From Bacteroidota bacterium (GTDB lineage: Bacteria > Bacteroidota > Bacteroidia > Bacteroidales > JBHOTF01), in NCBI GenBank assembly GCA_042584005.1, contig JBHOTF010000004.1, positions 4,151-68,150 of the forward strand: a stretch of 64,000 bases of DNA. Direction: 5' to 3'. The translations under genes were made by a program, and so were the position numbers. Under the pieces are notes generated by a model that saw only the letters and a program-made list of their open reading frames with translations, had not been told where the DNA came from and made no database searches. Below are positions 15,213-46,426 of this stretch, piece by piece (within the stretch, counting starts at the first letter, position 1; each line of letters starts with the position of its first letter).

Positions 15213-15215
15213 TAT

Positions 15216-16112
15216 ATGAGCAGTGTAAAACCTGATATTAAGGTACAAAAGTGTTTTATCACTGGCGACAAATGGATATATTATAAGTTATATGCTGGTG
15301 TTAGAACATGTAATAAGCTATTAATTGAATTAATTAAACCTCTAACTAAAAATCTTATTTCCAGATCTCTTATCGATAAATGGTTTTTTATAAGATATGC
15401 AGATCCAGACAATCATATTCGATTAAGAATGCATAGTACTGAAGAAAAACATATTGGAGATATTATAAATAGTATGTATGAAATGTCTAAAAGATTTATT
15501 AATCATCAACAATTATGGAAAGTACAAACTGATACTTATGTGCGTGAAACAGAAAGATATGGGACTGGCAGTATTGAACTGGCAGAAAGTTGGTTTCATT
15601 TTGATAGTGAATTAATTATTAATGTTATTGATAAAGAGCAAAAGAATCCTGATAAAGACCGGGTTTGGTTATTTTCTTTTATAGCAGTGGATAAACTTAT
15701 GGAGGATTTTGGCTTATCTCTAAAAGAAAAATATTCTCTAATAGATTTATTAAACAAATCCTATGGAGAAGAATTCAATATCAACAGAATTTTGAAGAGC
15801 CAGCTTGATAAAAAATACCGTAAAAATAACCAGAGAATAGAACAGCTTCTGGATAGTTTTGATAATCAGCCTATTTCTAAAGAATTTATGAGCTTAATAT
15901 GTAAAAGGTCTGAGAAACAATCAAAAATTGTAAATCAGATATTGTTGTCGGATAAAAATAAATGTTTGGAAGTAGAATTAAATACACTTATTGCAAGTTT
16001 TATTCACATGATGCTTAATCGATTATTCAGATCACAGCAGCGTTTACACGAATTAGTTATTTATAATTTTCTATCAAGATATTATAAATCAAAAATAGCC
16101 AGGAGCAAATAA
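15216..16112 (+). CDS. LanB C-terminal (glutamate-elimination) domain protein, thiopeptide-type bacteriocin biosynthesis family
   Basis: 298 aa. WIYYKLY ... DKWFFIRYADPDNHIRLRMH is the hallmark of Lant_dehydr_C / SpaB_C domains. Confidence 0.75.
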   Translation: MSSVKPDIKVQKCFITGDKWIYYKLYAGVRTCNKLLIELIKPLTKNLISRSLIDKWFFIRYADPDNHIRLRMHSTEEKHIGDIINSMYEMSKRFINHQQLWKVQTDTYVRETERYGTGSIELAESWFHFDSELIINVIDKEQKNPDKDRVWLFSFIAVDKLMEDFGLSLKEKYSLIDLLNKSYGEEFNINRILKSQLDKKYRKNNQRIEQLLDSFDNQPISKEFMSLICKRSEKQSKIVNQILLSDKNKCLEVELNTLIASFIHMMLNRLFRSQQRLHELVIYNFLSRYYKSKIARSK

Positions 16113-25518: not shown

Positions 25519-25722
25519 TTAACCGCCTGACATCATATGTAATACCATTACATTATCACCATCCTTAATATAAATGTCAGAATATTGTGGTCGTTTCACT
25601 AATTCGCCATTTATCCTTACTACTATAAGCCTAAATGTGAAATTTTTTAATCCCAATAATTCGGTAATTGATAATTTATCTTGTTTAAATTCTTCCGTCC
25701 TGTTATTTAAAATGATTTTCAT
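25519..25722 (-). CDS. ThiS/MoaD-family sulfur-carrier protein
   Basis: 67 aa, beta-grasp size, C-terminal Gly-Gly (...HMMSGG). Confidence 0.7.
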   Translation of the reverse strand: MKIILNNRTEEFKQDKLSITELLGLKNFTFRLIVVRINGELVKRPQYSDIYIKDGDNVMVLHMMSGG

Positions 25723-25786: not shown

Positions 25787-26494
25787 TTAACCCTGGTTTT
25801 TTGTAAAATATACTTTTCTTGAAAATGGAGAAAATGATTTTGTGCCACCTCCCTGGGAAATTTCTTTTAATATCTTCTGATCGTTGTTAGAAAAAATGCT
25901 TCCAAAAATAATACTCATATTTTTATACGATAGGATTTCTTTACACATAATAGATGAGGGGCCCAGAAGAAAAATTTTACAATTTTTATTTGTTGCTTCA
26001 ACTAATTCGCAAAAGCTATTATTAAAAATTGTTGTTGCAGATAAAATAAGTGCATCAGCTTCTGATATATATTCTACCTGGTTTTCAATATTAAGCACTT
26101 TCCTGTGATCTGTTTTTTTATCAAAAATGTTTAATTTTATTTTTTCTTTTCTGAATTTTCTAACCAGTGGGCCAAAATAACCAGTCATCACTATGTTTGA
26201 GAAATCCTTAAATTTTATTTTTTTAAAAATGTCACAATCTTCATTATATGTGTTTAAATAATTAAGTTGAGCATTATAATATGCATTTAAAATAATTCGG
26301 TGTTTTATATTATCCAGATCAGGATTTTTTAAATCGATTAAACTCAATTTGAATATTTTGTTGAGTGTGGAACATACTCCAATATTTCCGTTTTTTAAAA
26401 TGACAGCATGATATTTTTCTCCGCAAACAATATTTTGTATGCTGTTATGATCAAAACCATAGATATTATAAAGTGTTAATAAAGGTTCCTGCAT
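25787..26494 (-). CDS. DUF4213/DUF364-like Rossmann protein (putative metal-chelation domain)
   Basis: 235 aa. The pattern IVMTGYFGPLV ... ADALILSATTIFNNSF ... IFLLGPSS resembles the DUF364 family. It is divergent from AOR. Confidence 0.55.
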   Translation of the reverse strand: MQEPLLTLYNIYGFDHNSIQNIVCGEKYHAVILKNGNIGVCSTLNKIFKLSLIDLKNPDLDNIKHRIILNAYYNAQLNYLNTYNEDCDIFKKIKFKDFSNIVMTGYFGPLVRKFRKEKIKLNIFDKKTDHRKVLNIENQVEYISEADALILSATTIFNNSFCELVEATNKNCKIFLLGPSSIMCKEILSYKNMSIIFGSIFSNNDQKILKEISQGGGTKSFSPFSRKVYFTKNQG

Positions 26495-26691: not shown

Positions 26692-28848
26692 ATGATGAAT
26701 ATTCAGGAATTGAAAGGAAGCCATAAGCTACTTGCAGAGTATAAATATAATGTTACTCCGCTTGATAAGGGGTATACAGATAAAGTATTGTATATTAATT
26801 TGTCTGATAATACTATTAGGGAAAAAGATGTTCCAGCTTTGATGAAGGAAAATTTTATTGGTGGAAAAGGATATGGTTTAAAGCTGTTATGGGATGCAAC
26901 AAAACCCGATACCAAATGGACTGATCCGGAAAATGAAATTATTATTTCCTCAGGTCCTATCGGAGGAATTACCCAATATTCAGGAGCAGGCAAATCTCTG
27001 GTAGTTACATTATCACCTGCAAGTAATTCAGTTACCGATAGTAATGCTGGTGGATATTTTGGGCCATTTTTAAAATTTTCAGGTTTTGATGCGATTGAAA
27101 TTCAGGGAAAGGCAAAAGAGGATGTTATTGTCGTTATAGATGGAACAAAAGGAATTATCAGGATTGAAGAAGCACCAAATGAAGAATCAGACAGCCATCT
27201 TCTTACTGAACAATTAACTGAAATGTATGCTGATAGCGATAAAGCTAAAAGATATGTTTCTGTAGTTTCTGCAGGTAAAGGTGCTGATAATTCATGGATA
27301 GGAATGCTTAATTTTAGTCTTTTTGATGGCAGAAAAAATAAGGTCAGGTTAAAGCAGGCGGGCCGAGGTGGAACAGGGACTGTTTTTCGTGATAAAAAAA
27401 TCAAAGCACTTGTTACCAAGATACCTAAGGTTGGTGGCAATTTGAACAAAGTTGCTGACCTGCCGGCAATTGCCGAAAGGGGGAAACGCTTTAATAAAGA
27501 AATAAGAGAGCTTGATGATTATCAATGTGAGATGAGAACAAAGGGCACAGCTCACCTGATTGAAATAATGGATGATTATGATCTTCTTCCAACACATAAC
27601 TTTAAATTTGGTTCACATGAGGATTCTCAAAAAATCGAATCAGAAGACTGGAAAATTCGTTTTGCTCAGGGATCTCCGGATGCTTGCTGGATAGGTTGTA
27701 GCATGTCGTGTGCCAAAGGTGTTGATAATTATATTGTTAAGACAGGCCCATATAAAGGACAAAATGTAATTGTTGATGGCCCGGAATATGAAAATGCAGG
27801 CGGACTTGGTTCAAATTGTGGAATATTTGATCCAAATTATATTGTTGAATTAAATTTCTACTGTGATACATATGGAATTGATACAATCTCCTGGGGAACA
27901 ATGGTGGCCTTTGTAATGGAATGTTATGAAAATGGAATAATCAATAAAAAGATTACAGGGGGGCTGGAATTAAATTTCGGAAATGCCGGTTCTGCAATTG
28001 AATTATTACACATGGTTGCACGTGGTGAAGGTTTTGGACTTATTGCAGGGAAGGGGATTAGGAAGATGAAAGAGATATTTGAAAAAGAATATGGTGGAGA
28101 CCCACAGTTCTTATTTGATATAGGGATGGAAAATAAAGGACTTGAATATTCAGAATATGTTTCTAAAGAGTCTCTTGCCCAGCAAGGAGGTTTTGCTTTA
28201 ACCAATAAGGGCCCGCAACATGATGAGGCCTGGCTCATATTTATGGATATGGTAAATAATCAAATACCTACATTTAAGGATAAAGCAGAAGCTCTTCATT
28301 ATTTTCCAATGTTCAGAACATGGTTTGGCCTGGTAGGCTTATGTAAATTACCATGGAATGATGTTGAACCTGAAGATAATGCTGAAGCTGATGAACCTGC
28401 AAAAGTGCCTGAACATGTAGATAATTACGTTACATTATATAAGTCAGTTACAGGTAAGGAGTTTGATAAGGATATGTTAATTAGAATGTCAGAAAAGGTT
28501 TATAATTTCCAAAGAGTATTTAATCTCAGACGCGGATATGGTACACGTAAATGGGATGCACAACCTTATCGTGCTGCAGGACCTGTTACAATTGAGGAAT
28601 ATGAATCACGTGCTGAACGTTACGATAAACAGATGAAGGAAATTATTGGAGTTGATCCTGAAGGAAAAAATACTGAAGAAAAAATTTCCATAACAAGAAA
28701 ATTTAGAGAAGAACAATATGAAATGCTCCTTGATGCAGTTTATAAAAGACGGGGATGGAATAATAATGGTGTGCCAACAATTGAACATCTGAAGAATATT
28801 GGAATGGACCTCCCGGAATTAATTGAAATTGTGAGTCAACACCAATAG
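26692..28848 (+). CDS. Aldehyde:ferredoxin oxidoreductase family (tungsten/molybdo-pterin) enzyme, long form
   Basis: AOR N-domain (IGGKGYGLKLLWD, GPIGG, NAGGYFGPFLKFSGFDAIEIQGKA). Also RGGTGTVF, LPTHNF, a Cys cluster CWIGCSMSC, EYENAGGLGSNCGI and CDTYGIDTIS. 718 aa. Confidence 0.85.
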   Translation: MMNIQELKGSHKLLAEYKYNVTPLDKGYTDKVLYINLSDNTIREKDVPALMKENFIGGKGYGLKLLWDATKPDTKWTDPENEIIISSGPIGGITQYSGAGKSLVVTLSPASNSVTDSNAGGYFGPFLKFSGFDAIEIQGKAKEDVIVVIDGTKGIIRIEEAPNEESDSHLLTEQLTEMYADSDKAKRYVSVVSAGKGADNSWIGMLNFSLFDGRKNKVRLKQAGRGGTGTVFRDKKIKALVTKIPKVGGNLNKVADLPAIAERGKRFNKEIRELDDYQCEMRTKGTAHLIEIMDDYDLLPTHNFKFGSHEDSQKIESEDWKIRFAQGSPDACWIGCSMSCAKGVDNYIVKTGPYKGQNVIVDGPEYENAGGLGSNCGIFDPNYIVELNFYCDTYGIDTISWGTMVAFVMECYENGIINKKITGGLELNFGNAGSAIELLHMVARGEGFGLIAGKGIRKMKEIFEKEYGGDPQFLFDIGMENKGLEYSEYVSKESLAQQGGFALTNKGPQHDEAWLIFMDMVNNQIPTFKDKAEALHYFPMFRTWFGLVGLCKLPWNDVEPEDNAEADEPAKVPEHVDNYVTLYKSVTGKEFDKDMLIRMSEKVYNFQRVFNLRRGYGTRKWDAQPYRAAGPVTIEEYESRAERYDKQMKEIIGVDPEGKNTEEKISITRKFREEQYEMLLDAVYKRRGWNNNGVPTIEHLKNIGMDLPELIEIVSQHQ

Positions 28849-28859
28849 GAAAATTTATT

Positions 28860-28886
28860 AAGGATTGTAATGCAGTCCTTTTTTAT
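28860..28886 (+). terminator. Rho-independent terminator after AOR
   Basis: 8-bp stem AAGGATTG / CAGTCCTT (one G-U pair), loop TAATG, then TTTTT. Confidence 0.6.
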
Positions 28887-28920: not shown

Positions 28921-29202
28921 ATGTTTAAGGTAAATGAATATTTCGACGGAAAAGTAAAATCTATTGCTTTTGAAACATCAGAAGGGCCGGCAACAATTGG
29001 TGTTATGGCTAAAGGTGAATATGAATTCGGGACTTCTACAGTAGAGTATATGACTATTACATCAGGATTAATGGAGGTTTTGCTTCCTGGTGATAAAGAG
29101 TGGAAAAACTATCGTGAATTCGAAACTTTTAAAGTTGAAAAAGATGTAAAATTTAGTGTTAAAATTCTTGAAGACACTTCATATCGCTGCTTATATAAAT
29201 AA
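28921..29202 (+). CDS. ppnP: Pyrimidine/purine nucleoside phosphorylase PpnP (DUF1255)
   Basis: 93 aa. MFKVNEYFDGKVKSI and GEYEFGT align by eye with E. coli PpnP/YaiE. Confidence 0.85.
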   Translation: MFKVNEYFDGKVKSIAFETSEGPATIGVMAKGEYEFGTSTVEYMTITSGLMEVLLPGDKEWKNYREFETFKVEKDVKFSVKILEDTSYRCLYK

Positions 29203-29270
29203 CAAATTTTCCATCGAATAAAAAATATTTGCCTTAAGTAGAAATAAACATATCGACTAAATTTTAAAAT

Positions 29271-30011
29271 GTGAAATTTTTAATAGGAATAGACGATACA
29301 GATAATAAAGACAGTCGTGGGACAGGCTTCCGTTCACGCGACCTGGGAAATTACCTTGAGGCAGCCCGCCTTGGAAGAATTCTTGGTGTTAGCCGCCATC
29401 AACTTCTTGTTGATGACAGAATTCCATATACATCTAAAAATTCATCTGCTTGCATTGAAATTGAAAGTAGTCAGCTGGAAGCAATAATTTCTTTTTCAAG
29501 GGTATATCTTCTAAAAGAATCCGCAATTGGTGCCGATGTCGGTTTATGTATCATTAATAAAGACAGAATAGATAATGAAGTTGTTGATTGGGGAACCAGA
29601 GCAAAAAAAGAGGTTCTTAGCATTAATGGTGCCAGAAATCTGGCAAATAAACATGGAATTTTTCTTGAAGGATTAACCGGAACCGGTGGTGGAATAATAG
29701 GAGCAATGGCTGCTATTGGACTGAGACATAGCGGAAATGACGGACGTTTTGTCTGGCTTCGGGGAAAAGATCTGAGAGAACTGGAAGGAGTATTTAATTT
29801 CTGGGAAATAAAATCGCTTATTCCTATTGACAAGATAAAAACTATTCATGGAAATGATATATCACCGGAAGCCCGCGTTTATATTGGGAAGTGGATAAGA
29901 CCGGTATTAAAAAATAATAAAATTGTAATTATAGTTGAACCGTCAAGAAATACTCAAAGTTATGAATGGGAAGTTGCATCAAAAGAAAATATCAGAAGTA
30001 TATCCAATTAA
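29271..30011 (+). CDS. TiaS N-terminal kinase-domain (TCKD/DUF1743)-like protein, no OB or zinc-ribbon domains
   Basis: GTG start. FLIGIDDTDNKDSRGTGF, IPYTSKNSSAC and GGGIIGAMAAIGL mirror the IGIDDTDS...G.CTTY, IPYKTRGNGA and GRGLIGALAAVG blocks I recall from archaeal TiaS. Confidence 0.5.
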   Translation: MKFLIGIDDTDNKDSRGTGFRSRDLGNYLEAARLGRILGVSRHQLLVDDRIPYTSKNSSACIEIESSQLEAIISFSRVYLLKESAIGADVGLCIINKDRIDNEVVDWGTRAKKEVLSINGARNLANKHGIFLEGLTGTGGGIIGAMAAIGLRHSGNDGRFVWLRGKDLRELEGVFNFWEIKSLIPIDKIKTIHGNDISPEARVYIGKWIRPVLKNNKIVIIVEPSRNTQSYEWEVASKENIRSISN

Positions 30012-30534
30012 GAGATACGGTGTAATTGCTGAAAGTATTTTCTTATTTCTTATAGGTACTTTACCGATTATTATACATGCTAAATTTAGATACGATCTTG
30101 GAATTCCCGGTCACCATGGATTAGAATATATGGCTTTAATAATGTTGGGAAGAACGGCAACAGATATCAGGTGGGCTTCAGTATTTATTTCATTGGGAAT
30201 ATTATCTATGTTATTTCTTCCATATATAGGTTTGAAGAACCCTATTACTGCAATAGTATTTGTACTTCCACCTTTTATCGTCGACATAATATATAATTCA
30301 AAAAAGAATTGGAAAAATAATATCTTATTATTATCAGTTATTGGAGGAATAGCTTATTCAATACTTCCTGTTTCAAAATTATTAATAATGTTAACAACAG
30401 GATTTCCATATAAGGCTTTTTTAAGAAATCCGGTAGTGCCATTTATAACCCATTTTATTTTTGGATTTGCGGGAGCCTTGTTCGGGGCAGGTATTATAAT
30501 AACTATTAGGAGAATAAAGAAAAGTAATAAATAA
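29962..30534 (+). CDS. Multi-pass membrane protein of unknown family
   Basis: About 5-6 hydrophobic helices. It overlaps the 3' end of the TiaS-like gene. The start is ambiguous (ATG at 29935 or 29962). Confidence 0.5.
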   Translation: MNGKLHQKKISEVYPIKRYGVIAESIFLFLIGTLPIIIHAKFRYDLGIPGHHGLEYMALIMLGRTATDIRWASVFISLGILSMLFLPYIGLKNPITAIVFVLPPFIVDIIYNSKKNWKNNILLLSVIGGIAYSILPVSKLLIMLTTGFPYKAFLRNPVVPFITHFIFGFAGALFGAGIIITIRRIKKSNK

Positions 30535-30562: not shown

Positions 30563-31435
30563 ATGAAAAAATATTATAACTCAGTATTAATAATATTATC
30601 AATATTACTCCTTACAATATCTTGTAAAAAAGAGAATGAATTACCTCCGACAATCACATTGAAAACGGATTCAGGATATACTTACGACGAAACTCTGGTT
30701 GCTGTTGGAGATACTGTAATAATTGGAATTGTAGCGAATTCTAATGGTGATGTAAATTTAACTAATGTAACAGTTAAAGTAAATGAAGAGGTAAATTATA
30801 CCAAGGGAATTAATTCGGAAAATTACAGTTTCGATTATATAATCACAAAAAGCACTCTTGAGGAAGAACTCTGGGAATTTTCAGTTACTGATAAAAATGG
30901 TAATAGTGCTTCTGTAACAGTGACCCTGAATAAAGATCCTGATTCAGAATTTGGAGCAGTTAATAACTACCCATCTGTCATTCTTGGCGGACAAGAGAAC
31001 GATAGTTTAGGAGGCTTTTTCTCATTTAGTGAAAATACTCTATATAATTTACAAGCGGCATATAATTATCAATCAGTTATAGATCTGGTATATTATTATT
31101 ACGGTTCTGATAAAAATACAATTTGCTCCCCAGGTGCAAATATTGAAGCTGAAGTTTTTAATAGCCTAATTGACCCGGGGTCATGGGATACTAAGAGAAC
31201 AACAATGTTTATCAAAACTTCATTAAGCATTGCAGATTATAATAGTATAGTATTAGACAACCTGCTTATTTCAAGTTATAGTGAAGCTAATGCAAAGAGA
31301 AAAGCTAAAGAACTGGCTGTTAACGATATTTATTCCTTTAAAACTGAAAATGGAAAATTAGGTTTGTTTTTAGTAAAATCCATTACTGGTGCAGAGGAAG
31401 GAATAATTGAAGTCTCTATTAAGATTCAGGAATAA
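30563..31435 (+). CDS. Lipoprotein of unknown function
   Basis: Lipobox LLLTISC after the signal peptide. It lies directly upstream of a TonB-dependent receptor. Confidence 0.6.
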   Translation: MKKYYNSVLIILSILLLTISCKKENELPPTITLKTDSGYTYDETLVAVGDTVIIGIVANSNGDVNLTNVTVKVNEEVNYTKGINSENYSFDYIITKSTLEEELWEFSVTDKNGNSASVTVTLNKDPDSEFGAVNNYPSVILGGQENDSLGGFFSFSENTLYNLQAAYNYQSVIDLVYYYYGSDKNTICSPGANIEAEVFNSLIDPGSWDTKRTTMFIKTSLSIADYNSIVLDNLLISSYSEANAKRKAKELAVNDIYSFKTENGKLGLFLVKSITGAEEGIIEVSIKIQE

Positions 31436-31464: not shown

Positions 31465-33525
31465 ATGAAAAATAGGATAGTATTATTCTTTATACTGTTT
31501 GTTTCTATTAGTGCTCTTTCACAAAATGTAGGAAAGCTTAATATTGATATTGATGAAATTATATTAACAGCCACAAGATCACCAAACTATCTGAAAAATA
31601 TTCCAGGAAGGATTGAAATTATTGACCAGAAAATAATTTCTGATTTTCCTGCAAACACATTAGATGAATTGCTATTTGTTTTACCAGGTTTAAATGTAAA
31701 CAGGAGTTGGGGAATTTTCTCAAAAAATGCCTCGGTAACATTACGGGGTTTAAATGGTACAGATAGAGTATTGGTACTCCTTAATGGACTTCCTTTGAAT
31801 AAATCTGCAGGAGGAGGAATAAACTGGCATATGATAACTCCTAATCAGGTAAAACAAATTGAAGTTTGTAAAGGGCCGGGATCTTCAGTTTATGGAAATA
31901 ATGCAATGGCTGGTGTAATCAATATTATTACAAAAAAACCTTCTGAAAAATTTGGAGGAGAAATTGGTTTTGAAACCGGAACTTATGGAACAATAGGATC
32001 CTCCCTTAATTTATCAGGAAGAAAAAATAAAGATAAAGGGCTTTATTGGAACATAAATCTTATGGGTAGAAAAGGTGATGGTTATATTCTTGAGCCAGTA
32101 GAAAATCGTGATAGCACCGATTCTAATGCATATCTGAAGGAATTATCTGCCGGAACAACTTTAGGTTACCATTTTAAAAATTCTGTTCTTGAACTGGATT
32201 ATTATTTTTATAAAGATAAAAGAGGTTCCGGAACAAAAATTTATGAAAAGGATGGTAGCTTCCTGAGTTATACAACTAATTATTTATCAGCAAAGTTTAA
32301 AGGACAAAGCAATAAGTGGTTTTATGAGATAAAAAGCTTTTTTCAGTTGCAGAATTATTTTGAAGAAAGTGAAAGTTTTAATTCTTATGCTGAATATAAA
32401 CTTTATGATATAGATCAGACATCATATGATCAGGGGATATGGATTAATTTATCCAAAAATATTACAGATAATCAGCGTGTTACATTTGGACTGGATGGCA
32501 AAGTGGCATCTTTTGACGCTATTGATGATTATAAAACATCTTCTGATTATTCTAACAGGAAAGGAAAAACTGCATTGTTTGCATTATTTGCCCAGGATGA
32601 AATAAAACTTTTGAAAGATAAGCTTCATCTGGTGGCAGGCTTAAGAGCTGATTTCTCAAATTTTTATGATGGTGAATTTGATATAAAAAATCCTACAAAA
32701 AATACAGGTTTTGCTGACGATAAAACAATTCTATACGAATCTTCAGCCTGGGCAGCAATCTCACCAAGGTTGGTTATGAAATATAACTTTAATGATAATT
32801 TGTCAGCATATATTTCATATTCAGTAGGTTTTATGCCTGCAAGCCTCGATGATCTCTGTAGCTCAAGAAAAATCAGGAAGGGATTTAAAATGGCTAACCC
32901 GGATTTAAAACCTGAAAAGTTATTTAATTATGAAACCGGAATTAATTTAACAATATGGAATAAACTCGATATTAAACCATCTGTCTATTATTCTATTGGA
33001 AAAGATTTCCAATATTTTGTTGGCACAGGCGATTCGATTGATACCGGTGGACTTTCTTTTAAGCCAATATTAAGAAGAGAGAATATATCAAATGTAATGA
33101 TTGCCGGGGCAGAGATTAGTATCAATTATTTAATTAGTAATAGTTTGAATGTAATTTCCAATTATTCATATAATTATTCTGAAATTATCAATTTTGACCT
33201 AACAAGTTATTACGGTACAGATCTTAAAGGAAAACATCTAAACGAAGTTCCGAATCATCAATTTTTTACCGGGCTTAACTGGAAAAATAAAATTACGAAT
33301 GTTTTTATGAGTAGCAGATATAACGGTCCACAGTATTATGATGAGGAAAATACAACTATGATAGATTCATACTGGCAGTTTGATATAAATTTATCGCGTA
33401 AAATAAAAAACAACATACATATTGCTCTGTCTATTCAGAACTTGTTTAATAAACGATTTATTGATAAAAAACAATTGCTTTCACCCGGCAGATTCATAAA
33501 CCTGTCTGTTCGATACAAACTTTAG
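31465..33525 (+). CDS. TonB-dependent outer-membrane receptor
   Basis: Signal peptide, plug-domain motifs (IEIIDQ..., VTLRGLNG, IEVCKGPGSSVYGNNAMAGVINIITK) and a 22-strand-size barrel. 686 aa. Confidence 0.85.
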   Translation: MKNRIVLFFILFVSISALSQNVGKLNIDIDEIILTATRSPNYLKNIPGRIEIIDQKIISDFPANTLDELLFVLPGLNVNRSWGIFSKNASVTLRGLNGTDRVLVLLNGLPLNKSAGGGINWHMITPNQVKQIEVCKGPGSSVYGNNAMAGVINIITKKPSEKFGGEIGFETGTYGTIGSSLNLSGRKNKDKGLYWNINLMGRKGDGYILEPVENRDSTDSNAYLKELSAGTTLGYHFKNSVLELDYYFYKDKRGSGTKIYEKDGSFLSYTTNYLSAKFKGQSNKWFYEIKSFFQLQNYFEESESFNSYAEYKLYDIDQTSYDQGIWINLSKNITDNQRVTFGLDGKVASFDAIDDYKTSSDYSNRKGKTALFALFAQDEIKLLKDKLHLVAGLRADFSNFYDGEFDIKNPTKNTGFADDKTILYESSAWAAISPRLVMKYNFNDNLSAYISYSVGFMPASLDDLCSSRKIRKGFKMANPDLKPEKLFNYETGINLTIWNKLDIKPSVYYSIGKDFQYFVGTGDSIDTGGLSFKPILRRENISNVMIAGAEISINYLISNSLNVISNYSYNYSEIINFDLTSYYGTDLKGKHLNEVPNHQFFTGLNWKNKITNVFMSSRYNGPQYYDEENTTMIDSYWQFDINLSRKIKNNIHIALSIQNLFNKRFIDKKQLLSPGRFINLSVRYKL

Positions 33526-33628: not shown

Positions 33629-35095
33629 ATGAAATTTATCAATATTAAATTGCCTAAAGCCATTAGTTATAGCTCGTTAGCCTTAACTGTTCCTCTTCTT
33701 TTTTCTTCATGTGCAAAAGAAGAAAAAGAACTAAATTTCATTTTAATAAATATTGATGATTTAGGTTGGACAGACCTAGAATGTTATGGAAGTAAGTATT
33801 ATGAAACTCCTAATATTGATCGTCTGGCTTCACAAGGATTAAAGTTTACAAGTGCCTATGCTTCCTGCGCAGTTTCATCACCAACAAGAGCTTCATTAAT
33901 GACAGGCAGATATCCCGCCAGGATTGGAATAACCGATTGGATAAGAGCAAGATTTCAGGGAGCTGTTATTCCTGAGGATAAAAAATTTGTTCCTGAGTAT
34001 GTTGGAAATAAAAGTAATCAGGTTTTATGTCCTAATAATCCATACTGGATGGATCATAATGAACTTACTATTGCAGAATTGCTTAAGAAAAAAGATTATA
34101 CGACTTGTCATATTGGAAAATGGCATTTAGGAACTGACGATTGGTATCCTGCAAGTCAGGGTTTTGATTTGAATTACGGTGGATGCGATTACGGGCATCC
34201 TCCCGGATATTTTGATCCATATGATAATAAGGAAAGAGATGGTATTCCAAATCTTGAACCAAGGAAAAAGGGAGAATATCTAACTGACAGAGAAGCTGAT
34301 GAGGCGGTAAAATTTATAAGAGACCATAAGGATGGCCCATTCTTTCTTAACTTTTGTCCTTATGCGGTACATACACCACTTCAGGCAAAAAAGGAACTGG
34401 TAGAAAAATATAAGGCAAAAACTCCTACAAAACAAAATAATGCTGTTTATGCTGCAATGATAGAAAGTGTTGATGATGCAGTTGGGGGAATTATGGATAT
34501 TCTGGATGAATTAAAAATTGCAGATAATACTGTAATTATTTTCACATCTGATAATGGTGGTTTATTGGGATATGCCACAAATAATGAACCTCTTCGTGAA
34601 GGTAAAGGTTATCCATATGAAGGAGGAATACGTATCCCATTAATAGTTCGCTGGCCTGGTGTTGTAGAAGAAGGTAGTATAAACGATTTTCCGGTTATCA
34701 GTACTGATATTTTTCCTACAATTTGTGAAGCAGCTGAAATTCAGTTACCGGAGGATTTGGAAATTGATGGTTTAAGTTTGATGCCTATATTTAATGGAAA
34801 AAATTCATTAGACAGAGATTTATTATGCTGGCATTTTCCACATTACAGATCAAAGGAGGTTGGCCCTTACAGTATAGTTCGTTTAGAAAACTGGAAAATG
34901 ATCAAATGGTATGAAGGCCCTGTATATGAACTTTATAATTTGGAGAATGACCTTTCTGAAAAAAATGACCTGACAAAATCTATTCCTGAAAAGGTTATTG
35001 AGATGGATATTATTCTAAGAAATTGGCTGAATAGTATTAACGCAAGATCACCTGTAGAAAATCCTGATTATATTGAAGTTATTGCCGGGCAATAA
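33629..35095 (+). CDS. Sulfatase (arylsulfatase A family), apparent Ser-type
   Basis: NIDDLGWTD metal site. The signature is SSPTRASLMTGR, with Ser at the formylglycine position. Also GKWHLG and FTSDNGG. Confidence 0.85.
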   Translation: MKFINIKLPKAISYSSLALTVPLLFSSCAKEEKELNFILINIDDLGWTDLECYGSKYYETPNIDRLASQGLKFTSAYASCAVSSPTRASLMTGRYPARIGITDWIRARFQGAVIPEDKKFVPEYVGNKSNQVLCPNNPYWMDHNELTIAELLKKKDYTTCHIGKWHLGTDDWYPASQGFDLNYGGCDYGHPPGYFDPYDNKERDGIPNLEPRKKGEYLTDREADEAVKFIRDHKDGPFFLNFCPYAVHTPLQAKKELVEKYKAKTPTKQNNAVYAAMIESVDDAVGGIMDILDELKIADNTVIIFTSDNGGLLGYATNNEPLREGKGYPYEGGIRIPLIVRWPGVVEEGSINDFPVISTDIFPTICEAAEIQLPEDLEIDGLSLMPIFNGKNSLDRDLLCWHFPHYRSKEVGPYSIVRLENWKMIKWYEGPVYELYNLENDLSEKNDLTKSIPEKVIEMDIILRNWLNSINARSPVENPDYIEVIAGQ

Positions 35096-35120
35096 TTATT
35101 TATCGGGTTATTTATTCTTT

Positions 35121-35675
35121 ATGGAGAAAATAGAAAATCTGCTTTTAGTTGGTGGAAGTTACAGGAATGTGGGTAAAACTCATTTCATTATTAAATTAAT
35201 TAATCGATTTAGTCAAAATAATCCTATAATAGGTCTCAAAGTAAAATCCATCTATAATGGTGATGATAAATTTCATGGAAGAGACTGGGATAATAATAAA
35301 GATAATTTCAGAATAATTGAAGAAAATAAAACTAATACAGACGATGGTGGACAAATGCTAAAAGCAGGTGCAAAAAAGGTATTCAGAATAAAAACAAAAA
35401 TCGAATATCTACCTGATGCAATGGAAGATTTTTTTAATCTTGTTCCCCGGGGCACTGCCATTATTGCTGAGTCAAACAGTATAAGGAAGTTTTTTGTCCC
35501 GGGCTTATATATAATGATTTATGGAGATAACAAAAAACTATATAAACCAAGTGCAATAAAATTATCACAATTGGCAGATGTTAATATTTATTCAGATGGA
35601 AAATCATTTAATATTTCTCCTGAAAATGTAAATATTGATTTTATTAATGGAAAATGGGATAAATCTAAGATCTGA
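35121..35675 (+). CDS. Hypothetical protein, weakly MobB-like with a degenerate P-loop
   Basis: LLLVGGSYRNVGKTHFIIKLI resembles the MobB N-terminus, but the glycine spacing is non-canonical. AGAKKVF and AIIAESNS blocks are in MobB-like order. Confidence 0.3.
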   Translation: MEKIENLLLVGGSYRNVGKTHFIIKLINRFSQNNPIIGLKVKSIYNGDDKFHGRDWDNNKDNFRIIEENKTNTDDGGQMLKAGAKKVFRIKTKIEYLPDAMEDFFNLVPRGTAIIAESNSIRKFFVPGLYIMIYGDNKKLYKPSAIKLSQLADVNIYSDGKSFNISPENVNIDFINGKWDKSKI

Positions 35676-36366: not shown

Positions 36367-36385
36367 CAAGCTAAAATATTTGTTT

Positions 36386-37561
36386 ATGATACAATTAGAT
36401 GAAGCTCTTGAAATAGCCTTGAATAAGGCATTTGTATTAGATACAGAAAGAATAGATTATATTGAATCATTAGGAAGAATTCTTGGAGAAGATATAAGAT
36501 CTGATATTAATATGCCTCCGTTTAATAAATCAGCAATGGATGGGTATGCATGCCGAAGAGAGGATTTGTCTTTTGAATTGGAAGTCGTGGAGACAATTAG
36601 AGCAGGATTTGTTCCGGAAAAATCAATTGTGGAGAGACAGTGTGCCAGTATAATGACAGGTGCAATTTTACCGGAAGGAGCTAATTGTGTGATAATGGTG
36701 GAGCATACAAAAAAGAGTAAGGATAATAAAATACTTTTTACTAAAGAAAAAACTAAGAATAATATATGTTATAAAGGGGAAGATATTAAAATTGGAGAAT
36801 TGGTTTTAAAAAAAGGTGAAAAGATAAAATCACAACATATCGCTGTAATGGCATCATTAGGCTGTGTTAAACCTCAGGTATATAAACAACCAAAAGTTGG
36901 TGTAATAGCTACTGGAACAGAATTAGTTGAACCGGAGAATAAACCAGGTATTTCTCAGATAAGAAATAGCAATGGCTCACAAATGATCGCACAATTGAAA
37001 GCTTTAGGAATTAATCCTGAATATTATGGAATAGCTCCAGATTCTGAAGAAAAAACCTTTAATATAATTTCTGATTCATTGAAAGAAAATGATGTTATTT
37101 TGCTTTCAGGAGGAGTTTCGATGGGAGAGTATGATTTTGTTCCAAAGGTATTAAAGAAGCTTGGTATAGAATTGCTTTTTCAAAAAATTGCCGTTAAACC
37201 TGGTAAACCAACCACTTTTGGCGTAAATAATAAAAAATATGTTTTTGCCTTACCGGGAAATCCTGTTTCATCATTCATAATTTTTGATCTTTTGGTAAAA
37301 CCATTTTTATATAAAATGATGAATAAAGATACCTCCCAATCTATTATTAAATTACCATTAGAAAAAAGGATAGAACGAAAGAAAGCAGAACGACTGGTTT
37401 GGATGCCTGGAAAAATTAATAATAATGGAACTGTCCAGGTAATTGATTATCACGGCTCAGCTCATATAAATTCTCTAACTGATGCTGATTGTATAATTTC
37501 AATGAAAGCCGGACAACTAACTATTGAATCTGGAGAACTTGCAGATGTTAGACAAATTTAA
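36386..37561 (+). CDS. moeA: Molybdopterin molybdenum(tungsten)transferase MoeA
   Basis: PPFNKSAMDGYA and LSGGVSMGEYDFV motifs. I prefer the ATG at 36386 to the TTG at 36380. Confidence 0.85.
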   Translation: MIQLDEALEIALNKAFVLDTERIDYIESLGRILGEDIRSDINMPPFNKSAMDGYACRREDLSFELEVVETIRAGFVPEKSIVERQCASIMTGAILPEGANCVIMVEHTKKSKDNKILFTKEKTKNNICYKGEDIKIGELVLKKGEKIKSQHIAVMASLGCVKPQVYKQPKVGVIATGTELVEPENKPGISQIRNSNGSQMIAQLKALGINPEYYGIAPDSEEKTFNIISDSLKENDVILLSGGVSMGEYDFVPKVLKKLGIELLFQKIAVKPGKPTTFGVNNKKYVFALPGNPVSSFIIFDLLVKPFLYKMMNKDTSQSIIKLPLEKRIERKKAERLVWMPGKINNNGTVQVIDYHGSAHINSLTDADCIISMKAGQLTIESGELADVRQI

Positions 37562-38373: not shown

Positions 38374-38835
38374 ATGAAGAAATTAAGTCATATCGATGAT
38401 CAGGGGAAAGCCAGAATGGTTGATGTTGGTGATAAACCAGATCAGCTGAGAATTGCAAAGGCCACAGGGCATATTTGTTTAAATAAAGATGCCATTTACC
38501 AGATTAAGGAAAATCAAAATAAAAAAGGTGATGTATTAACTGTAGCTGAAATAGCAGGTATTCAGGCTGCGAAAAAAACATCTGACATAATTCCTTTATG
38601 CCATCCATTACCAATTACAAAAATTTCAGTAAAAGCATCAATAGATAAGTCTGGAGTGACAGTAAACAGTGAATTAAAATGTATTGGTAAAACCGGAATT
38701 GAAATGGAAGCCCTGACAGCCGTAAGTGCAGCATTATTAACGATATATGATATGTGCAAGGCAGTTGATAAAAAAATGGTGATAACTGAGGTCAGGCTTA
38801 TTGAAAAGACTAAAAATAATATTAGTTTAAAGTAA
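38374..38835 (+). CDS. moaC: Cyclic pyranopterin monophosphate synthase MoaC
   Basis: MVDVGDK, IPLCHPL and GIEMEALTA motifs; 153 aa. Confidence 0.9.
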   Translation: MKKLSHIDDQGKARMVDVGDKPDQLRIAKATGHICLNKDAIYQIKENQNKKGDVLTVAEIAGIQAAKKTSDIIPLCHPLPITKISVKASIDKSGVTVNSELKCIGKTGIEMEALTAVSAALLTIYDMCKAVDKKMVITEVRLIEKTKNNISLK

Positions 38836-38865: not shown

Positions 38866-39468
38866 TCAGGCCTTTTTATTAAGAGATTCGAGATCTTCAG
38901 GTGTATTAATATTTGTGAAATTCTTTTTTGAAAATTCATTCTCCTGTATTTCCAGATAACCAACTTTAATTTTGTCCAAAAACTTCCTGATATAAAAATT
39001 ATTAGTACTAATAAATGAGTTAAGCGATTTTAAGCTCGATTTATTATATATAGAAAACATTGGTTCTAAATTATTGCCAGTTTTTGGTACAACAGCATCA
39101 AAATTATTTTTTTTATAATAATCAATAACCTTCCTTATCATTTCAGTATTTATAAAAGGCATATCACAGGCAACAACAAAAACTGCCTCCTTTGTTGAGT
39201 ATGAAAGAGCTGAATGAATACCACCAATAGGCCCTGTATTTTTTATTTTATCAGAAACAACTCTTATTTTTTTATTCTGGTAATTATATTTTGTTGTTTC
39301 ATTTGTTACTATTAATATTTCTTCAAACAAATTCTCATATTTTTCCAGAATACTGGTAATTATTTCTTTGCCATTAACTTTTAATAAAGCTTTTTCTTTT
39401 CCTCCCATCCTGGTGTTTTTTCCTCCGGCAAGTATCGCTCCGGTCACATCTTTGTAATTTAAAATCAT
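38866..39468 (-). CDS. mobA: Molybdenum cofactor guanylyltransferase MobA
   Basis: GAILAGGKNTRMGG N-terminal motif and VVACDMPF; 200 aa. Confidence 0.8.
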   Translation of the reverse strand: MILNYKDVTGAILAGGKNTRMGGKEKALLKVNGKEIITSILEKYENLFEEILIVTNETTKYNYQNKKIRVVSDKIKNTGPIGGIHSALSYSTKEAVFVVACDMPFINTEMIRKVIDYYKKNNFDAVVPKTGNNLEPMFSIYNKSSLKSLNSFISTNNFYIRKFLDKIKVGYLEIQENEFSKKNFTNINTPEDLESLNKKA

Positions 39469-42520: not shown

Positions 42521-45500
42521 TTATAATTTTTCAATGTCACATAGAAATGCTTTATACTCAGGTATATTGGTATTTGCATCTCCGATGTGTGGTGTAAGCA
42601 TGTTTGCCGAATCGCCTTTGGCTAATCCTGAATATCCATAATGCCATGGTAAACCTATTTGATGAATAAGTCGTTTTTGACCATTTGAATCTTCAAAACT
42701 AAAAGGTTCAAAACGATGAGTAATTAAAGCCTGAGCTTTTACTTTTCCACGAGCTGAAGAGATAAGTACCTTATCTCCATTTTTGATTCCTTTTTCATTG
42801 GCAAGTTCTTTTCCAATTTCCACAAAAACATCAGGCATTAATTCTACCAGCCATGGAAGGTTTCTTGTCATGGCGCCAGCTTGCCAATGCTCTGTTAGTC
42901 TGAAGGTTGTCGCCACAATAGGATATTCATCTGGTGTTCCTATTTTATTCATTTCCTTATTTTTGTTATCACCCTCATGGAATAGAATAATTGCAGGATT
43001 ATTTTTTTCAGCTGATAAAGGATTTTTGGCCAATGGTGATTCTACAGGTTCATAATGTTCAGGGTACGGGCCATCGTTTAGTTTAGCTGAAAATATTCTG
43101 GCATATCCTTCTTCATTCATTATAAACGGATATTTTGAGCCCGGAGCCCACCCTCCGTCAGGGGTATCTCCTTCAAATGCACCATCACCAGATTTGAGTA
43201 GTGGATTCCATTTGATAACCCACCTTTTTGGATTAAGTGGATTTCCTTCCAGATCAATTGAGGCTCTGTTATACAGAATCCGACGATTAACCGGCCAGCA
43301 CCACGACCAGTTAAGATTCATACCCGGAGCTCTGCCGTTAGCAATTTGTTTCTTAATTTCAGTTTCATCTTTTTCGGCTATCCTTTTGGCATATCTGTTA
43401 GAGAATCTATGCCCATTCATCTCAATAAAGTTCGGATCGGTAATTTTTCCTTCCTTATCGGTCCAGTCAACATAACCCCCACAATACAGCCAATTACCAC
43501 TTGCGGTAGTTCCATCATCTTTCAGATTACCAAAACCTGGAATTTGCCCTTTAGTATTTCCTTCTTCAATATAATATCCGTTTATCTCCTGTGCTACTAT
43601 ATGTACGTTTGGTTCTCTGTCAGGGTCAACTTTATTACCAGTATCATAATCCCAGTTAAGCTTAAGTATGGGATCGGGAAATACTCCTCCATCAACTTGA
43701 TATTCAGCTTTTATTGCTTTGTAAAGCGAATCTATCATCCAAAGATCTGACCTGGAATCACCATGCCAGCCCTTGTCTCCTGAATTAATTGCCTTATATC
43801 TCCATTGAGCCCAGCGTCCGGAATTTGTTATTGATCCTTCTTTCTCAACAGAAGCAGCAGCCGGAAGAAGGAAAACTTCAGTTTGAATTTCAGCAGGATT
43901 TACTCCCGGGCGTTTCCAGAATATTGATGTTTCTGTTTCCCAAAGATCAGCAATAACCATCCACTTAAGATTTTCGAGTGCTTTTCTTTCCTTATTTGCA
44001 TTGGGCCCGCTTACTGCCGGATTCTGACCCCATACAAACAAACCATCAAAGTTCCCTTTGTACATATTTTCAAAAAGGCTTATGTGATCATGCCAACCAT
44101 ATCTTTTAGGAAGATAATTATAGCAGAACCCACCTTCAGTATTCTTTTGTGCATTTTCACCCCACCAGGCTTTCAAAAGGCTTGTTATATATTTAGAATA
44201 ATTGCTCCACCAATTTGCCGATTTTTTATCATTAGACTCAGGACTATATTTATCAATGTAGGTTTTTAGATCAACATCCTCTGTTACAGGAGCTTTTAAA
44301 TAACCTGGAAGAATATGATAAAGCAAACACATATCGGTGGAACCCTGAACATTTGATTCTCCTCTTAATGCATTTATTCCGCCACCGGCAATTCCTATAT
44401 TTCCTAAAAGGAGTTGTAGTATAACATAAGATCTTATATATTGGGAGCCAACTGTGTGTTGGGTTGCTCCCATAGCATAACACCATGTGGCAGATTTGTC
44501 TTTTTTATATGTGCTTGAAAAAAGTTCACATACTTCTAGATATTTGTTTTTTGGAGTTCCAGTAATATTACATACAGTTTTTATATCATATCTGGAATAA
44601 TGTTTTTTTAACAACTGAAAAACACAATTTGGATCTTTCAAACTTTTATCCTGCTTTGGATTACCTTTATTATTTAATTCATATTTCCATAAATTTTTAT
44701 CATATTTTCTGGTTCTTGAATCATAACCCATAAATAGACCATCATTAAAACCGAACTTTTTATTGATAATAAAAGATGCATTTGTTGAATTAATCAGATA
44801 ATCTTCTTGAATTCTGTTATTTTCAATGCAATAATTAATCATGCCTCCAACATATGCAATATCTGTTCCTGACCGGAATTTTGTGTAAATGTCGGCAATA
44901 GATGAAGTACGTGTAAAGCGGGGGTCTGATGAAATAACCTTTCCTCCGTTTTCTTTTGCTTTTATAATCCATTTGGTAGTAAGTGGATGCATTTCAACAA
45001 CATTTGATCCCATTATCATTATTACGTCAGAGTTCTGAATATCGTTAAAATGATTTGTCATTGCACCTCTTCCAAAAGAAGAGCCCAAAGCGGCAACAGT
45101 AGAGGAATGACATATTCTTGCCTGGTGTTCTATCCAGTATATACCTAATGCACGTGCAAGTTTTACTAAAAGATAACATTCCTCAGTGTCGTGAGCAGCT
45201 CCACCAAGCTGAGCTATTCCATCAGTACGGTTAACAATATAGCCATTATCCTCTTTTACAAAAGATTTTTCACGTGCTTCTTTAACATTTTTAGCAATTT
45301 TATTAATTGCCCATTCCCAGTCTTTCTTTTCCCAGTTGGCCGACCCGGGAGCTCTGTAAAGAACAGATTTATTCCGATTTTGATTATTGCTAACCTGATA
45401 TAATCCCGCACCTTTAGCACATACTGCGCCTTCATTGATAGGATGATCAGGATCTCCTTCAATGTTTATTATCTGGCCATTCATGGTTGAAACTATTAAA

Positions 45501-45877: not shown

Positions 45878-46426
45878 ATGAAGAAAATAACAAAGGATAA
45901 TATTAAATCTGAGCTAAAACTTGATATCAGGATAATTACATTAAGCGACAGAGCACATTCGGGAGAATACGAAGATAGAAGTGGCCCTGTTATTAAGAAC
46001 TTAATTTTTAATTATTTTAATAGTAAAGAATGGAAATTTGATATCAGCCTTAAAGTAATACCTGATAATTCCGACAGACTTAAAAAATTAATATCGGATG
46101 CTAAAAATGAAAAGGCTACAATTATAATTACAACTGGAGGTACTGGAATTGGGCCTAATGATATAACTGTTGAAACAGTCAGACCCTTTATTGATAAGGA
46201 AATACCAGGTATAATGGAACTTATCCGGGTTAAATACGGACAACAAAAACCCAATGCATTGCTTAGCAGAGGGATTGCCGGACTTATGGACGAGACCTTA
46301 GTTTATACACTTCCCGGTAGTGTTAAGGCTGTTAATGAATATATGACAGAGATTCTTAATACTCTTGAGCATTTAATTTATATGAAACTTGGAATTGATG
46401 TTCATGCATGTAAACCTGAAAAATAA
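45878..46426 (+). CDS. mog: Molybdopterin adenylyltransferase (MogA/MoaB family)
   Basis: ITTGGTGIGPNDIT and YTLPGSVKA motifs; 182 aa. Confidence 0.8.
   Translation: MKKITKDNIKSELKLDIRIITLSDRAHSGEYEDRSGPVIKNLIFNYFNSKEWKFDISLKVIPDNSDRLKKLISDAKNEKATIIITTGGTGIGPNDITVETVRPFIDKEIPGIMELIRVKYGQQKPNALLSRGIAGLMDETLVYTLPGSVKAVNEYMTEILNTLEHLIYMKLGIDVHACKPEK

Follow-up and report, generated by a model that had tools for sequence, protein, structure and literature searches.

The acquisition of tungsten by anaerobes, and the routing of W over Mo into pyranopterin cofactors, are only partly understood. The known parts are the Wtp, Tup and Mod ABC importers, TOBE storage proteins and MoeA paralogues. TiaS, the archaeal tRNA(Ile2) agmatidine (2-agmatinylcytidine) synthetase, which uses ATP and agmatine to modify C34 of this tRNA, belongs to another field: its Thr18-Cyt34 kinase domain (TCKD) is, to our knowledge, found only in archaeal tRNA modification, and Terasaka and co-workers are said to have reported in 2011 that TiaS autophosphorylates Thr18. 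Here, a 64,000-nucleotide stretch of DNA from a Bacteroidota bacterium (contig JBHOTF010000004.1, positions 4,151 to 68,150; hereafter the window) was analyzed for two overlapping genes, one coding for a 246-amino acid (aa) TCKD-like protein and the other for a small membrane protein, its partner (Table 1). The pair is a new combination built from known folds, and it extends the TiaS kinase domain into bacterial metal metabolism. Our preferred reading, held tentatively and with slightly less than even confidence, is that the two proteins act together at the inner membrane as a module for the acquisition of tungstate/molybdate, with the TiaS-type kinase domain as the ATP-using partner. A literature search returned nothing on bacterial TCKD-like proteins, on the pair, or on methanogenesis marker protein 11, a relative described below.

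The 246-aa product is an exact match of an NCBI 'hypothetical protein' from a Bacteroidota metagenome-assembled genome (MAG). Its relatives (3417 database matches) are nearly all 243-250 aa long and unnamed, and at least 429 species genomes code for one. When 1.84 billion cluster representatives were searched, the result was a family of 337 clusters (50% identity) at E≤1e-30, and of 1085 clusters at E≤1e-3. Among 30 family members, the residues D8, D9, T10, D11, N12, R16, G17, T18, G19, R42-L45, T54, S55, N57-C61, G87 and D89 are invariant, as are W107, G108, L132, G134, G137, G141, G144, A147, G150, L151, G155, D157-R159, W208, P211 and W233. The three blocks to which a first-pass annotation of the window had drawn attention, MKFLIGIDDTDNKDSRGTGF, IPYTSKNSSAC and GGGIIGAMAAIGL, lie in this open reading frame (ORF) and are the best-conserved parts of the family.

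That annotation had likened the protein to the TiaS TCKD. The Pfam model TiaS_TCKD (PF22641) gave 17.9 bits (E=3e-3), which is below its gathering score of 27. The NCBIfam model of TiaS (NF040849) was matched with 34 bits vs a cut-off of 600 (E=1e-8), and the alignment covered positions 1-152 of the 422 in the model. When a profile of the 30 members was run against the PDB, the TiaS chains of A. fulgidus and P. furiosus were retrieved with E values of 8e-8 to 4e-7 over residues 2-152. The AlphaFold2 (AF2) model of the protein (pLDDT 91.8, pTM 0.89) was aligned by Foldseek with the TiaS entries 5xob, 4rvz, 3amu, 3amt and 3u02 (E 5e-9 to 2e-8, probability 1.0, ∼154 columns). Superposition gave root-mean-square deviations of 2.1-2.3 Å on the A. 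fulgidus entries and of 3.3-3.6 Å on 3u02, and the sequence identity in the Foldseek alignments was 21-24%. The protein is thus a genuine, though distant, relative of the TiaS TCKD, and the NCBIfam, profile and Foldseek matches bear out the annotation on this point.

The likeness extends to the active site. TiaS (PDB 3AMT, 3AMU, 5XOB, 3U02) and the TCKD-like protein have in common the GIDDTD motif, the Thr18 position, the PY-T/S-xx-N and G-x-IG-x-xAA-x-G motifs and the fold over ∼154 residues. In two sequence alignments, D8, D9, T10, D11 and T18 fell on the same positions in the A. fulgidus and P. furiosus enzymes, Thr18 included. In TiaS, DDTD is the catalytic motif and Thr18 the position that is autophosphorylated; D8, D9, T10, D11 and the Thr18 equivalent T18 are all invariant in the 30 members.

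Of the ferredoxin-like (FLD), OB-fold and zinc-ribbon domains, with which TiaS holds tRNA(Ile2), none was found in the 246-aa protein by NCBIfam alignment, fold match or C-terminal profile, and it has no Cys4 motif; the absence of the last two domains had been rightly noted in the first-pass annotation. Since the TiaS fold match ends at about residue 154 and both the OB fold and the zinc ribbon are missing, we regard the protein as TCKD-like and stand-alone, and not as a TiaS: the likeness is at the level of the domain, not of the enzyme. Its C-terminal domain of ∼90 aa, unrelated to TiaS, carries the conserved residues R159, R169, G173, W208, R210, P211, W233 and K238, and is basic, with R159, R169, R210, K217, K238 and K242 conserved. 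A sequence profile of this domain found no relative in the PDB (nothing below E=0.15), and Pfam gave no match. For the same reasons, and given where the TiaS fold match ends, its assignment as a TOBE/Mop-type or a TiaS FLD-type domain was rejected. The TCKD-like protein further differs from TiaS in being bacterial, in having a membrane partner and in residing in Mo/W loci. It might be supposed that it is a bacterial TiaS relative that modifies tRNA or RNA by acting on cytidine, with the membrane gene as an unrelated neighbour. The TCKD homology, the conserved catalytic motifs and the basic C-terminal domain would suit such a role; the missing FLD, OB and zinc-ribbon domains, the 34 bits where TiaS requires 600, the selected coupling to a membrane protein and a Mo/W regulon context without tRNA logic make it very improbable. 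A tilS gene was not recognised among the window ORFs scanned, which are a subset of all.

The best NCBIfam match was methanogenesis marker protein 11 (TIGR03280; E=2e-12, model positions 134-285 of 292, 46.7 bits vs a cut-off of 255.8), for which we know of no function. The TCKD-like region (positions 134-285 of the marker model) is common to both proteins, whereas the N-terminal 133 residues of the marker are missing from the 246-aa protein, and taxa and context are different. The entry 3U02 was considered as a stand-alone archaeal homologue and set aside, as it entered the PDB under the name of P. furiosus TiaS, of which it probably covers an N-terminal part.

To place the two genes in context, 80 loci of 20 kb each were fetched from reference genomes (Bacteroidota, Chloroflexota, Gamma-, Beta- and Alphaproteobacteria, Acidobacteriota and one 'Bacillaceae' MAG), the neighbouring ORFs were clustered, and the cluster representatives were annotated. 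In a count based on hidden Markov models (HMM), the partner was adjacent to the TCKD-like gene in 78 of 84 distinct loci (93%), and in 75 of these 78 it was in the +1 frame. The pair is found in at least four phyla (Bacteroidota, Chloroflexota, Pseudomonadota and Acidobacteriota). In 47 of the 80 loci, the stop of the upstream gene is preceded by an ATG at a distance of exactly 50 nt, and the upstream codon at this ATG is NAT (TAT, CAT, AAT or GAT, for Y, H, N or D), so that the ATG is kept while the upstream amino acid varies. This internal ATG is favoured: in loci with a GC content of at least 0.45, 13 NAT and 2 NAC codons were counted at the site vs 402 and 393 gene-wide (Fisher p=0.007). 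When the downstream ORFs of 68 loci were aligned, the true start of the partner was found to be this conserved ATG (29962 in the window) and not the TTG at 29935. For the overlapping protein, described in the first-pass annotation as having roughly 190 aa and 5-6 transmembrane (TM) helices, this start gives 190 aa, and the AF2 model shows six helices.

The overlap is absent from some loci (L031, L033 and L038), and in L064 a gene intervenes. It follows that these are two separate genes, which are most likely translationally coupled. The proposal of a coupled two-gene module is borne out by the adjacency, the spread over phyla, the constant frame and the selected ATG, and the pairing with the same membrane protein is conserved even in a distant subfamily, in another gene order (L087). 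The constant +1 frame and an overlap that is unusually long and conserved could also be accounted for by a programmed +1 frameshift within the 50 nt, by which both ORFs would be read as one fusion protein. We find this hardly credible: the ATG at the start of the overlap is conserved and selected, there are loci without overlap or with an intervening gene, no fusion of ∼435 aa occurs among the best 150 family representatives, and the gene order is reversed in L087.

The AF2 model of the partner (pLDDT 86.6) has six TM helices, and the positive-inside rule (K+R per loop) predicts that both termini and the loops L2 and L4 are cytoplasmic. By the same rule, the near-invariant PGHHGLE(F/Y)MA motif, which runs from L1 into TM2, and the GFPY motif of L5 are both on the outer side. 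Conserved polar residues occur in L1, L5, TM2, TM4, TM5 and TM6, and E55, D108, K/R139 and H164 are placed inside the membrane. With these outward motifs and intramembrane polar residues, the modelled layout is that expected of a substrate-binding membrane protein. Among 46 members no consistent Pfam match was obtained even at E≤5, and no source names the protein, in agreement with the first-pass annotation, which had recognised no family.

At the level of fold, that verdict has to be modified slightly. The best PDB matches of the model were S-components of energy-coupling factor (ECF) transporters (5edl, 5kbw, 4tkr, 3rlb and 4huq_S, including TmRibU, ThiT and FolT), with TM-scores of 0.47-0.59 over ∼178 columns. 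S-components were the top four matches and 9 of the top 23 (TM-scores 0.40-0.59), but the E values were weak (0.26-5), and the model suggests a weak resemblance to this fold. Like the S-components of the RibU, ThiT, FolT and YkoE types, the partner has ∼190 aa, six TM helices, cytoplasmic termini and a predicted outward polar pocket; it differs from them in having no sequence-family membership and in having the TCKD-like protein as its constant companion. No EcfT-like cluster was recurrent within 10 kb in the 84 loci, no recurrent genes for ECF-type ATPases were seen there, and the nearby ABC genes that could be typed were of the Wtp/Tup type.

At least one Mo/W gene cluster was present within 10 kb in 41 of the 80 loci, and the surroundings of the pair are specific for tungsten and molybdenum. 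The most frequent neighbours were a lipoprotein of ∼300 aa (66 loci), a TonB-dependent receptor (57 loci) and a protein sorted by the type IX secretion system (T9SS; 26 loci). A ModE-like regulator of 125 aa, with a ModE_repress domain as its only strong match (E=5e-19), was present in 26 loci, mostly at position -1; in 23-26 loci it is encoded immediately before the TCKD-like gene, in many cases at a distance of just 4-20 nt. On the Mo/W side, aldehyde:ferredoxin oxidoreductase (AOR; 10 loci), MoeA (8), MoaA (8) and a ThiF-like protein (8) recurred, as did MoaC and a MOSC-MoaB fusion (cluster c19). The WtpA proteins of the related loci scored 369-377 bits, above the NCBIfam cut-off of 355. 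Chloroflexota loci carried a TaoR-like regulator with HTH and PBP_like domains, a TupA-like substrate-binding protein, a TupB-like permease and an ABC ATPase.

Three gene orders were distinguished. The first is ThiF (on the opposite strand), AOR, Ppnp, ModE, TCKD-like protein, membrane partner, lipoprotein, TonB-dependent receptor, T9SS-sorted protein, MoeA, MoaA, MoaC, MoaB. The second is ModE, (WtpA), TCKD-like protein, membrane partner, lipoprotein, TonB-dependent receptor, (WtpA, permease, ATPase), and the third is TaoR-like regulator, c17, TCKD-like protein, membrane partner, TupA, TupB, TupC. The window matches the first pattern (AOR, Ppnp, the pair, lipoprotein and receptor, then MoeA, MoaA and MoaC). 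The 'metal-cofactor island' proposed for it from a first inspection can thus be specified as a Mo/W cofactor island, with AOR, MoeA, MoaA, MoaC and MogA/MoaB, which recurs in other genomes. A tblastn search of the 64 kb for a Wtp, Tup or Mod substrate-binding protein or permease, a ModE-like gene or ThiF found none. Six compact loci (L019, L020, L025, L028, L029 and L043) likewise have the gene set of the first order and no ABC importer, and among their recurrent genes no inner-membrane protein other than the partner was recognised. In L001, L010 and L038 the pair adjoins an orphan WtpA gene, with no permease or ATPase gene nearby.

A 24-bp palindrome, CGATATG-N10-CATATCG, recurs in upstream regions of the related loci. 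In 1.29 Mb, 18 perfect copies were found in 17 loci vs ∼0.02 expected; with up to one mismatch, there were 53 copies in 32 loci. In its half-sites and spacing it agrees with described ModE operators, namely that of E. coli, ATCGNTATATA-N6-TATATANCGAT (PMC545781), and that of M. acetivorans, RTTATGT-N8-RCATAAY, which was validated by electrophoretic mobility shift assay (PMC12327845): in each of the three, the cores are of the TATG/CATA type and are spaced by 10 nt, and a 24-nt CG...CG span is common to the E. coli operator and the palindrome. Perfect or 1-mismatch sites precede a start codon by 5-22 nt, which is that of the ModE-like gene in 11 cases and that of the TCKD-like gene in 4. Other sites precede the lipoprotein-receptor unit (at least 9), AOR (6), an aldehyde dehydrogenase gene (7) and Ppnp (2). 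In the loci inspected, the operator is just downstream of a TTTG promoter element. So close to the start codon and just past this element, the operator appears to be in a repressor-like position, as would be expected for uptake genes. With predicted operators before the pair, the lipoprotein-receptor unit and AOR, the pair of Bacteroidota is predicted to be part of a ModE-type regulon that also comprises a tungstoenzyme, tungstate-binding proteins and the genes for uptake at the outer membrane.

The window itself has a degenerate copy of this site, with a perfect right half (CATATCG) and two mismatches in the left half. A distance of 15 nt separates it from the GTG start downstream, and a TTTGCC element (29228-29233) extends into it with its 3′ end. 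Its position agrees with that of the perfect and 1-mismatch sites of the related loci; taken alone it is not above chance, as the window contains 5 sites with up to three mismatches vs 5.5 expected. Rfam gave no match to a Moco or other riboswitch in the window and seven loci.

The frequent adjacency of a ModE-like gene suggests another role for the pair, that of a sensor and kinase for ModE proteins that lack the Mop domain: the partner would sense extracytoplasmic tungstate or molybdate, and the TCKD-like protein, as the relative of an enzyme known to phosphorylate both protein and RNA, would pass the signal on to the short ModE-like regulator through phosphorylation or direct binding. The invariance of T18, which corresponds to the Thr18 at which TiaS reportedly autophosphorylates itself, would fit such a relay. 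The ModE-like gene, directly upstream in the 23-26 loci mentioned, codes for a DNA-binding domain only, with no oxyanion-binding Mop/TOBE domain, and the way in which ModE proteins of a single domain sense Mo has been called an open question (PMC545781). We nevertheless regard this role as unlikely. Most pair loci, the window included, have no ModE-like gene nearby; the adjacent regulator of Chloroflexota is TaoR-like and has a PBP-like ligand domain of its own; the distant subfamily has no such regulator; and the S-component-like fold is a transporter fold and not a known sensor fold.

The acquisition module is favoured because of the transporter-like fold and outward pocket of the partner, the compact loci without ABC importer, the orphan WtpA genes and the repressor-type position of the operator. 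From these we infer the substrate, the physical complex, the use of ATP, and the direction and mechanism of coupling, in the following terms. The lipoprotein and the TonB-dependent receptor would bring tungstate or molybdate, the most likely substrate, across the outer membrane. The S-component-like partner would then bind it in its outward polar pocket (PGHHG, GFPY, E55, D108, K/R139 and H164). On the cytoplasmic side, the TCKD-like protein, which appears to retain an ATP-utilising core (DDTD, the Thr18 equivalent, PYTSxNSS and GxIGxxAAxGL), would couple ATP chemistry to the process, either by driving the transport cycle of the partner or by trapping or activating the imported species inside. 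A more specific proposal, possible but doubtful, is that the pair represents a new class of transporter, primary or kinase-coupled, in which an S-component-like protein is driven by an ATP-splitting TiaS-type kinase domain instead of ABC ATPases, perhaps through a cycle of Thr18 phosphorylation and, in Bacteroidota, with the lipoprotein and TonB-dependent receptor, or else a tungstate-activating step that selects W over Mo. The TCKD-like protein was also considered as a replacement for MogA/MoaB and rejected as such, since a MoCF_biosynth protein is encoded in the window and the compact loci have the MOSC-MoaB fusion (c19).

Several observations weigh against an acquisition module. In at least 10 loci (Bacteroidota L005 and L042; Chloroflexota L030, L047, L058 and others) a complete Wtp or Tup ABC importer is encoded in the apparent operon of the pair. 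A second inner-membrane route for tungstate beside it would look redundant, and these loci favour an accessory role, for instance in sensing, in processing or in the selection between W and Mo. The partner resembles S-components weakly (E 0.26-4), and this resemblance has no sequence-family support and comes with no recurrent EcfT-like partner. The window has no ModE-like gene and only a degenerate copy of the operator. All related loci are from MAGs, with taxon labels that were taken from record titles and are approximate. Finally, the distant subfamily is found near FAD oxidoreductases and a Peripla_BP_2 protein and not near W genes, so that the chemistry of the pair may be generic rather than specific for tungsten.

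The complete importers would suit one such role, that of a membrane-anchored enzyme of tungstate processing or cofactor maturation. The TCKD-like protein would act on tungstate/molybdate or on a pterin, and the partner would do no more than tether it beside the importer. Possible tasks of the TCKD-like protein would be the formation of an activated oxyanion, discrimination between W and Mo, or the transfer of tungstate to MoeA. In keeping with this, the pair adjoins MoeA, MoaA, MoaC and MoaB, and the further invariant polar residues R42, H43, Q44, N57, S58, S59, C61, D89, K112 and E114 suggest a pocket for a small molecule besides ATP. Foldseek also gave weak echoes (E∼0.02) of the pterin pyrophosphokinase HPPK. 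A precedent for ATP-dependent handling of Mo/W is the cage-like Mo storage protein, which is mentioned in PMC11980592. Against it, a mere anchor would not need the conserved outward polar pocket of the partner, the known pathway to the Mo and W cofactors requires no such step and has its MogA/MoaB and MoeA present, and the operator position appears to be that of repressed uptake genes and not of activated biosynthesis genes. On balance a processing enzyme seems rather unlikely.

The distant subfamily of TCKD-like proteins (L086:1769-4249, L087:852-1802 and L085:448-1353) has GNDGE in place of GNDGR and a Cys-rich C-terminal extension. One member is fused to a GlpA-like FAD oxidoreductase with a BFD [2Fe-2S] domain and lies beside a Peripla_BP_2 binding protein, and another adjoins a metallo-beta-lactamase-fold protein. 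In L087, the HMM of the partner recognised the ORF at 202-786 (E=4e-20), and the two genes stand in the opposite order to that of the usual pair. As one member of this subfamily keeps the pair outside W contexts, the two-protein unit is older and more general than its link to tungsten.

The same subfamily lends some weight to a different substrate. The pair could salvage an organic cofactor precursor (a pterin, a nucleoside or a vitamin-like compound), which the partner would import and the TCKD-like kinase would phosphorylate and so trap, in the manner of PnuC and NadR. S-components typically bind vitamins and their precursors, and the top match, 5edl, is presumably an S-component of the thiamine-precursor type; operons of a TonB-dependent receptor, an inner-membrane facilitator and a kinase are typical of vitamin uptake in Bacteroidota; and a gene of the Ppnp nucleoside-phosphorylase family recurs upstream. 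The regulators, which are of the ModE or TaoR metal type, the tungstate-binding proteins among the neighbours, and a full de novo pterin pathway in the same loci all argue against this, and salvage is judged to be quite unlikely.

If the acquisition module is taken up again and compared with described systems, it stands beside the WtpABC, TupABC and ModABC importers and their regulators ModE or TaoR, with which the pair shares loci, apparent operons and the ModE-type operator logic. It differs from them in having no homology to any of their components, in often having no ABC importer near and, in Bacteroidota, in coming with a lipoprotein and a TonB-dependent receptor. The PnuC/NadR system and the Bacteroides operons of TonB-dependent receptor, PnuT and thiamine pyrophosphokinase are alike in architecture: a TonB-dependent receptor is followed by a small membrane facilitator that is genetically linked to an ATP-using enzyme of the cytoplasm. 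The protein families are unrelated, and here the regulators are metal regulators and the substrate is likely an oxyanion. The loci thus suggest an outer-membrane route for tungsten through a TonB-dependent receptor. Such a route is not mentioned in the papers on tungsten transport that were retrieved, and if the reading is correct it would be the first TonB-dependent pathway of tungsten acquisition to be described, in Bacteroidota. A TCKD-like enzyme that makes activated tungstate would, if real, be the missing W-over-Mo selection step for cofactor assembly. The pair is also a candidate answer to how Mop-less ModE proteins fit into Mo/W sensing.

Table 1. Features of the window around the TCKD-like and membrane partner genes (window positions)
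Feature	Position	Strand	Remarks
TCKD-like protein gene	29271..30011	+	GTG start, 246 aa
TiaS-type kinase-domain fold	residues 1-154 = 29271-29732	+	AF2 model, Foldseek, profiles
Family-specific beta-rich C-terminal domain	residues ~156-246 = 29736-30008	+	TiaS fold match stops at ~154
Membrane partner gene	29962..30534	+	190 aa from conserved ATG (MNG...); six TM helices in AF2 model
Overlap of TCKD-like and partner genes	29962..30011	+	50 nt; partner in +1 frame relative to TCKD-like gene
Degenerate ModE-type operator-like site, CCTTAAGTAGAAATAAACATATCG	29232..29255	+	right half CATATCG perfect, left half 2 mismatches
ThiS/MoaD-like sulfur carrier	25519-25722	-	Pfam/NCBIfam; divergent from AOR
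DUF364/DUF4213 protein ('putative heavy-metal chelation')	25787-26494	-	Pfam/NCBIfam; divergent from AOR
Aldehyde:ferredoxin oxidoreductase (AOR family, tungstoenzyme type)	26692..28848	+	Pfam/NCBIfam
Terminator-like hairpin	28860-28880		after AOR gene
Ppnp/DUF1255-family small cupin protein	28921..29202	+	93 aa; recurs upstream of module in 11-12 loci
Predicted lipoprotein, cluster c2	30563..31435	+	290 aa, conserved Cys21 lipobox; after pair in most Bacteroidota loci
TonB-dependent outer-membrane receptor, cluster c3	31465..33525	+	686 aa; Pfam/NCBIfam
MoeA	36380-37561	+	cofactor biosynthesis
MoaA	37524-38345	+	cofactor biosynthesis
MoaC	38374-38835	+	cofactor biosynthesis
MobA-like gene	38866-39468	-	cofactor biosynthesis
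Molybdopterin (bis-PGD) oxidoreductase catalytic subunit	42521-45673	-	1050 aa
MogA/MoaB-type MoCF_biosynth protein	45878-46426	+	

Further observations concern the neighbours of the pair. The lipoprotein of the window had no relative in Pfam, NCBIfam or a PDB profile search; its assignment as HmuY-like, for which there was one 'faint' precomputed match, was rejected on this basis. The Ppnp/DUF1255 cupin, whose annotation is that of a nucleoside phosphorylase, is found repeatedly between AOR and the ModE-like or TCKD-like genes, and in two loci a ModE-type operator lies upstream of it. Where the window has the DUF364/DUF4213 gene beside the ThiS/MoaD-like gene, related loci carry a ThiF/MoeB-like E1 gene, and the former may be a non-orthologous replacement in AOR-linked cofactor sulfur transfer; a MoaD/MoeB cluster linked to AOR has been described (PMC1779556). 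The number of terminator-like hairpins is not above chance, and a scan for sigma-70 promoters was uninformative for Bacteroidota.

Between the TonB-dependent receptor and MoeA, an ORF of 200 aa (35073-35675, + strand) overlaps the end of a sulfatase gene. It contains a GKT-bearing, P-loop-like stretch, LLVGGSYRNVGKTHF, and had no Pfam or NCBIfam match; it might be MobB-like. Further downstream, the segment 39514-45673 (- strand) codes for an FdhE-like protein, NrfD, a 4Fe-4S protein and the 1050-aa molybdopterin oxidoreductase, and forms, next to the cofactor genes, the putative operon of a membrane-bound Mo/W-bisPGD enzyme.

In Chloroflexota and Bacteroidota loci, extracytoplasmic proteins are encoded near the Tup or Wtp genes and the pair (L030:9428-9919, L058:1849-2337, L062:11343-12845 and L005:16334-17398; clusters c17, c28 and c30). 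Cluster c28 has a repeated domain that is weakly like the 'GEGP' diheme-protein domain and the Moco-binding region of SoxC; c17 had no Pfam match and c30 no NCBIfam match, and both were grouped with c28 by eye. These proteins may be accessory tungstate-handling proteins. An NAD-dependent aldehyde dehydrogenase of ∼540 aa (c7), which by eye is like pyrroline-5-carboxylate (P5C) dehydrogenase, was found near the module in 13 instances, with the operator upstream in, for example, L010:6661-6684, L012:7763-7786, L027:2067-2090, L042:9333-9356 and L070:16247-16270. It could be a tungsten-independent backup of AOR under metal-sparing control.

At some distance from the pair, the window encodes a protein of 741 aa with a lantibiotic-dehydratase N-terminal domain, followed by a protein of 298 aa with a thiopeptide-type bacteriocin biosynthesis domain (12987-16112, + strand), and a MATE efflux gene is adjacent. 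This segment looks like a biosynthetic cluster for a ribosomally synthesized and post-translationally modified peptide (lanthipeptide or thiopeptide-like).

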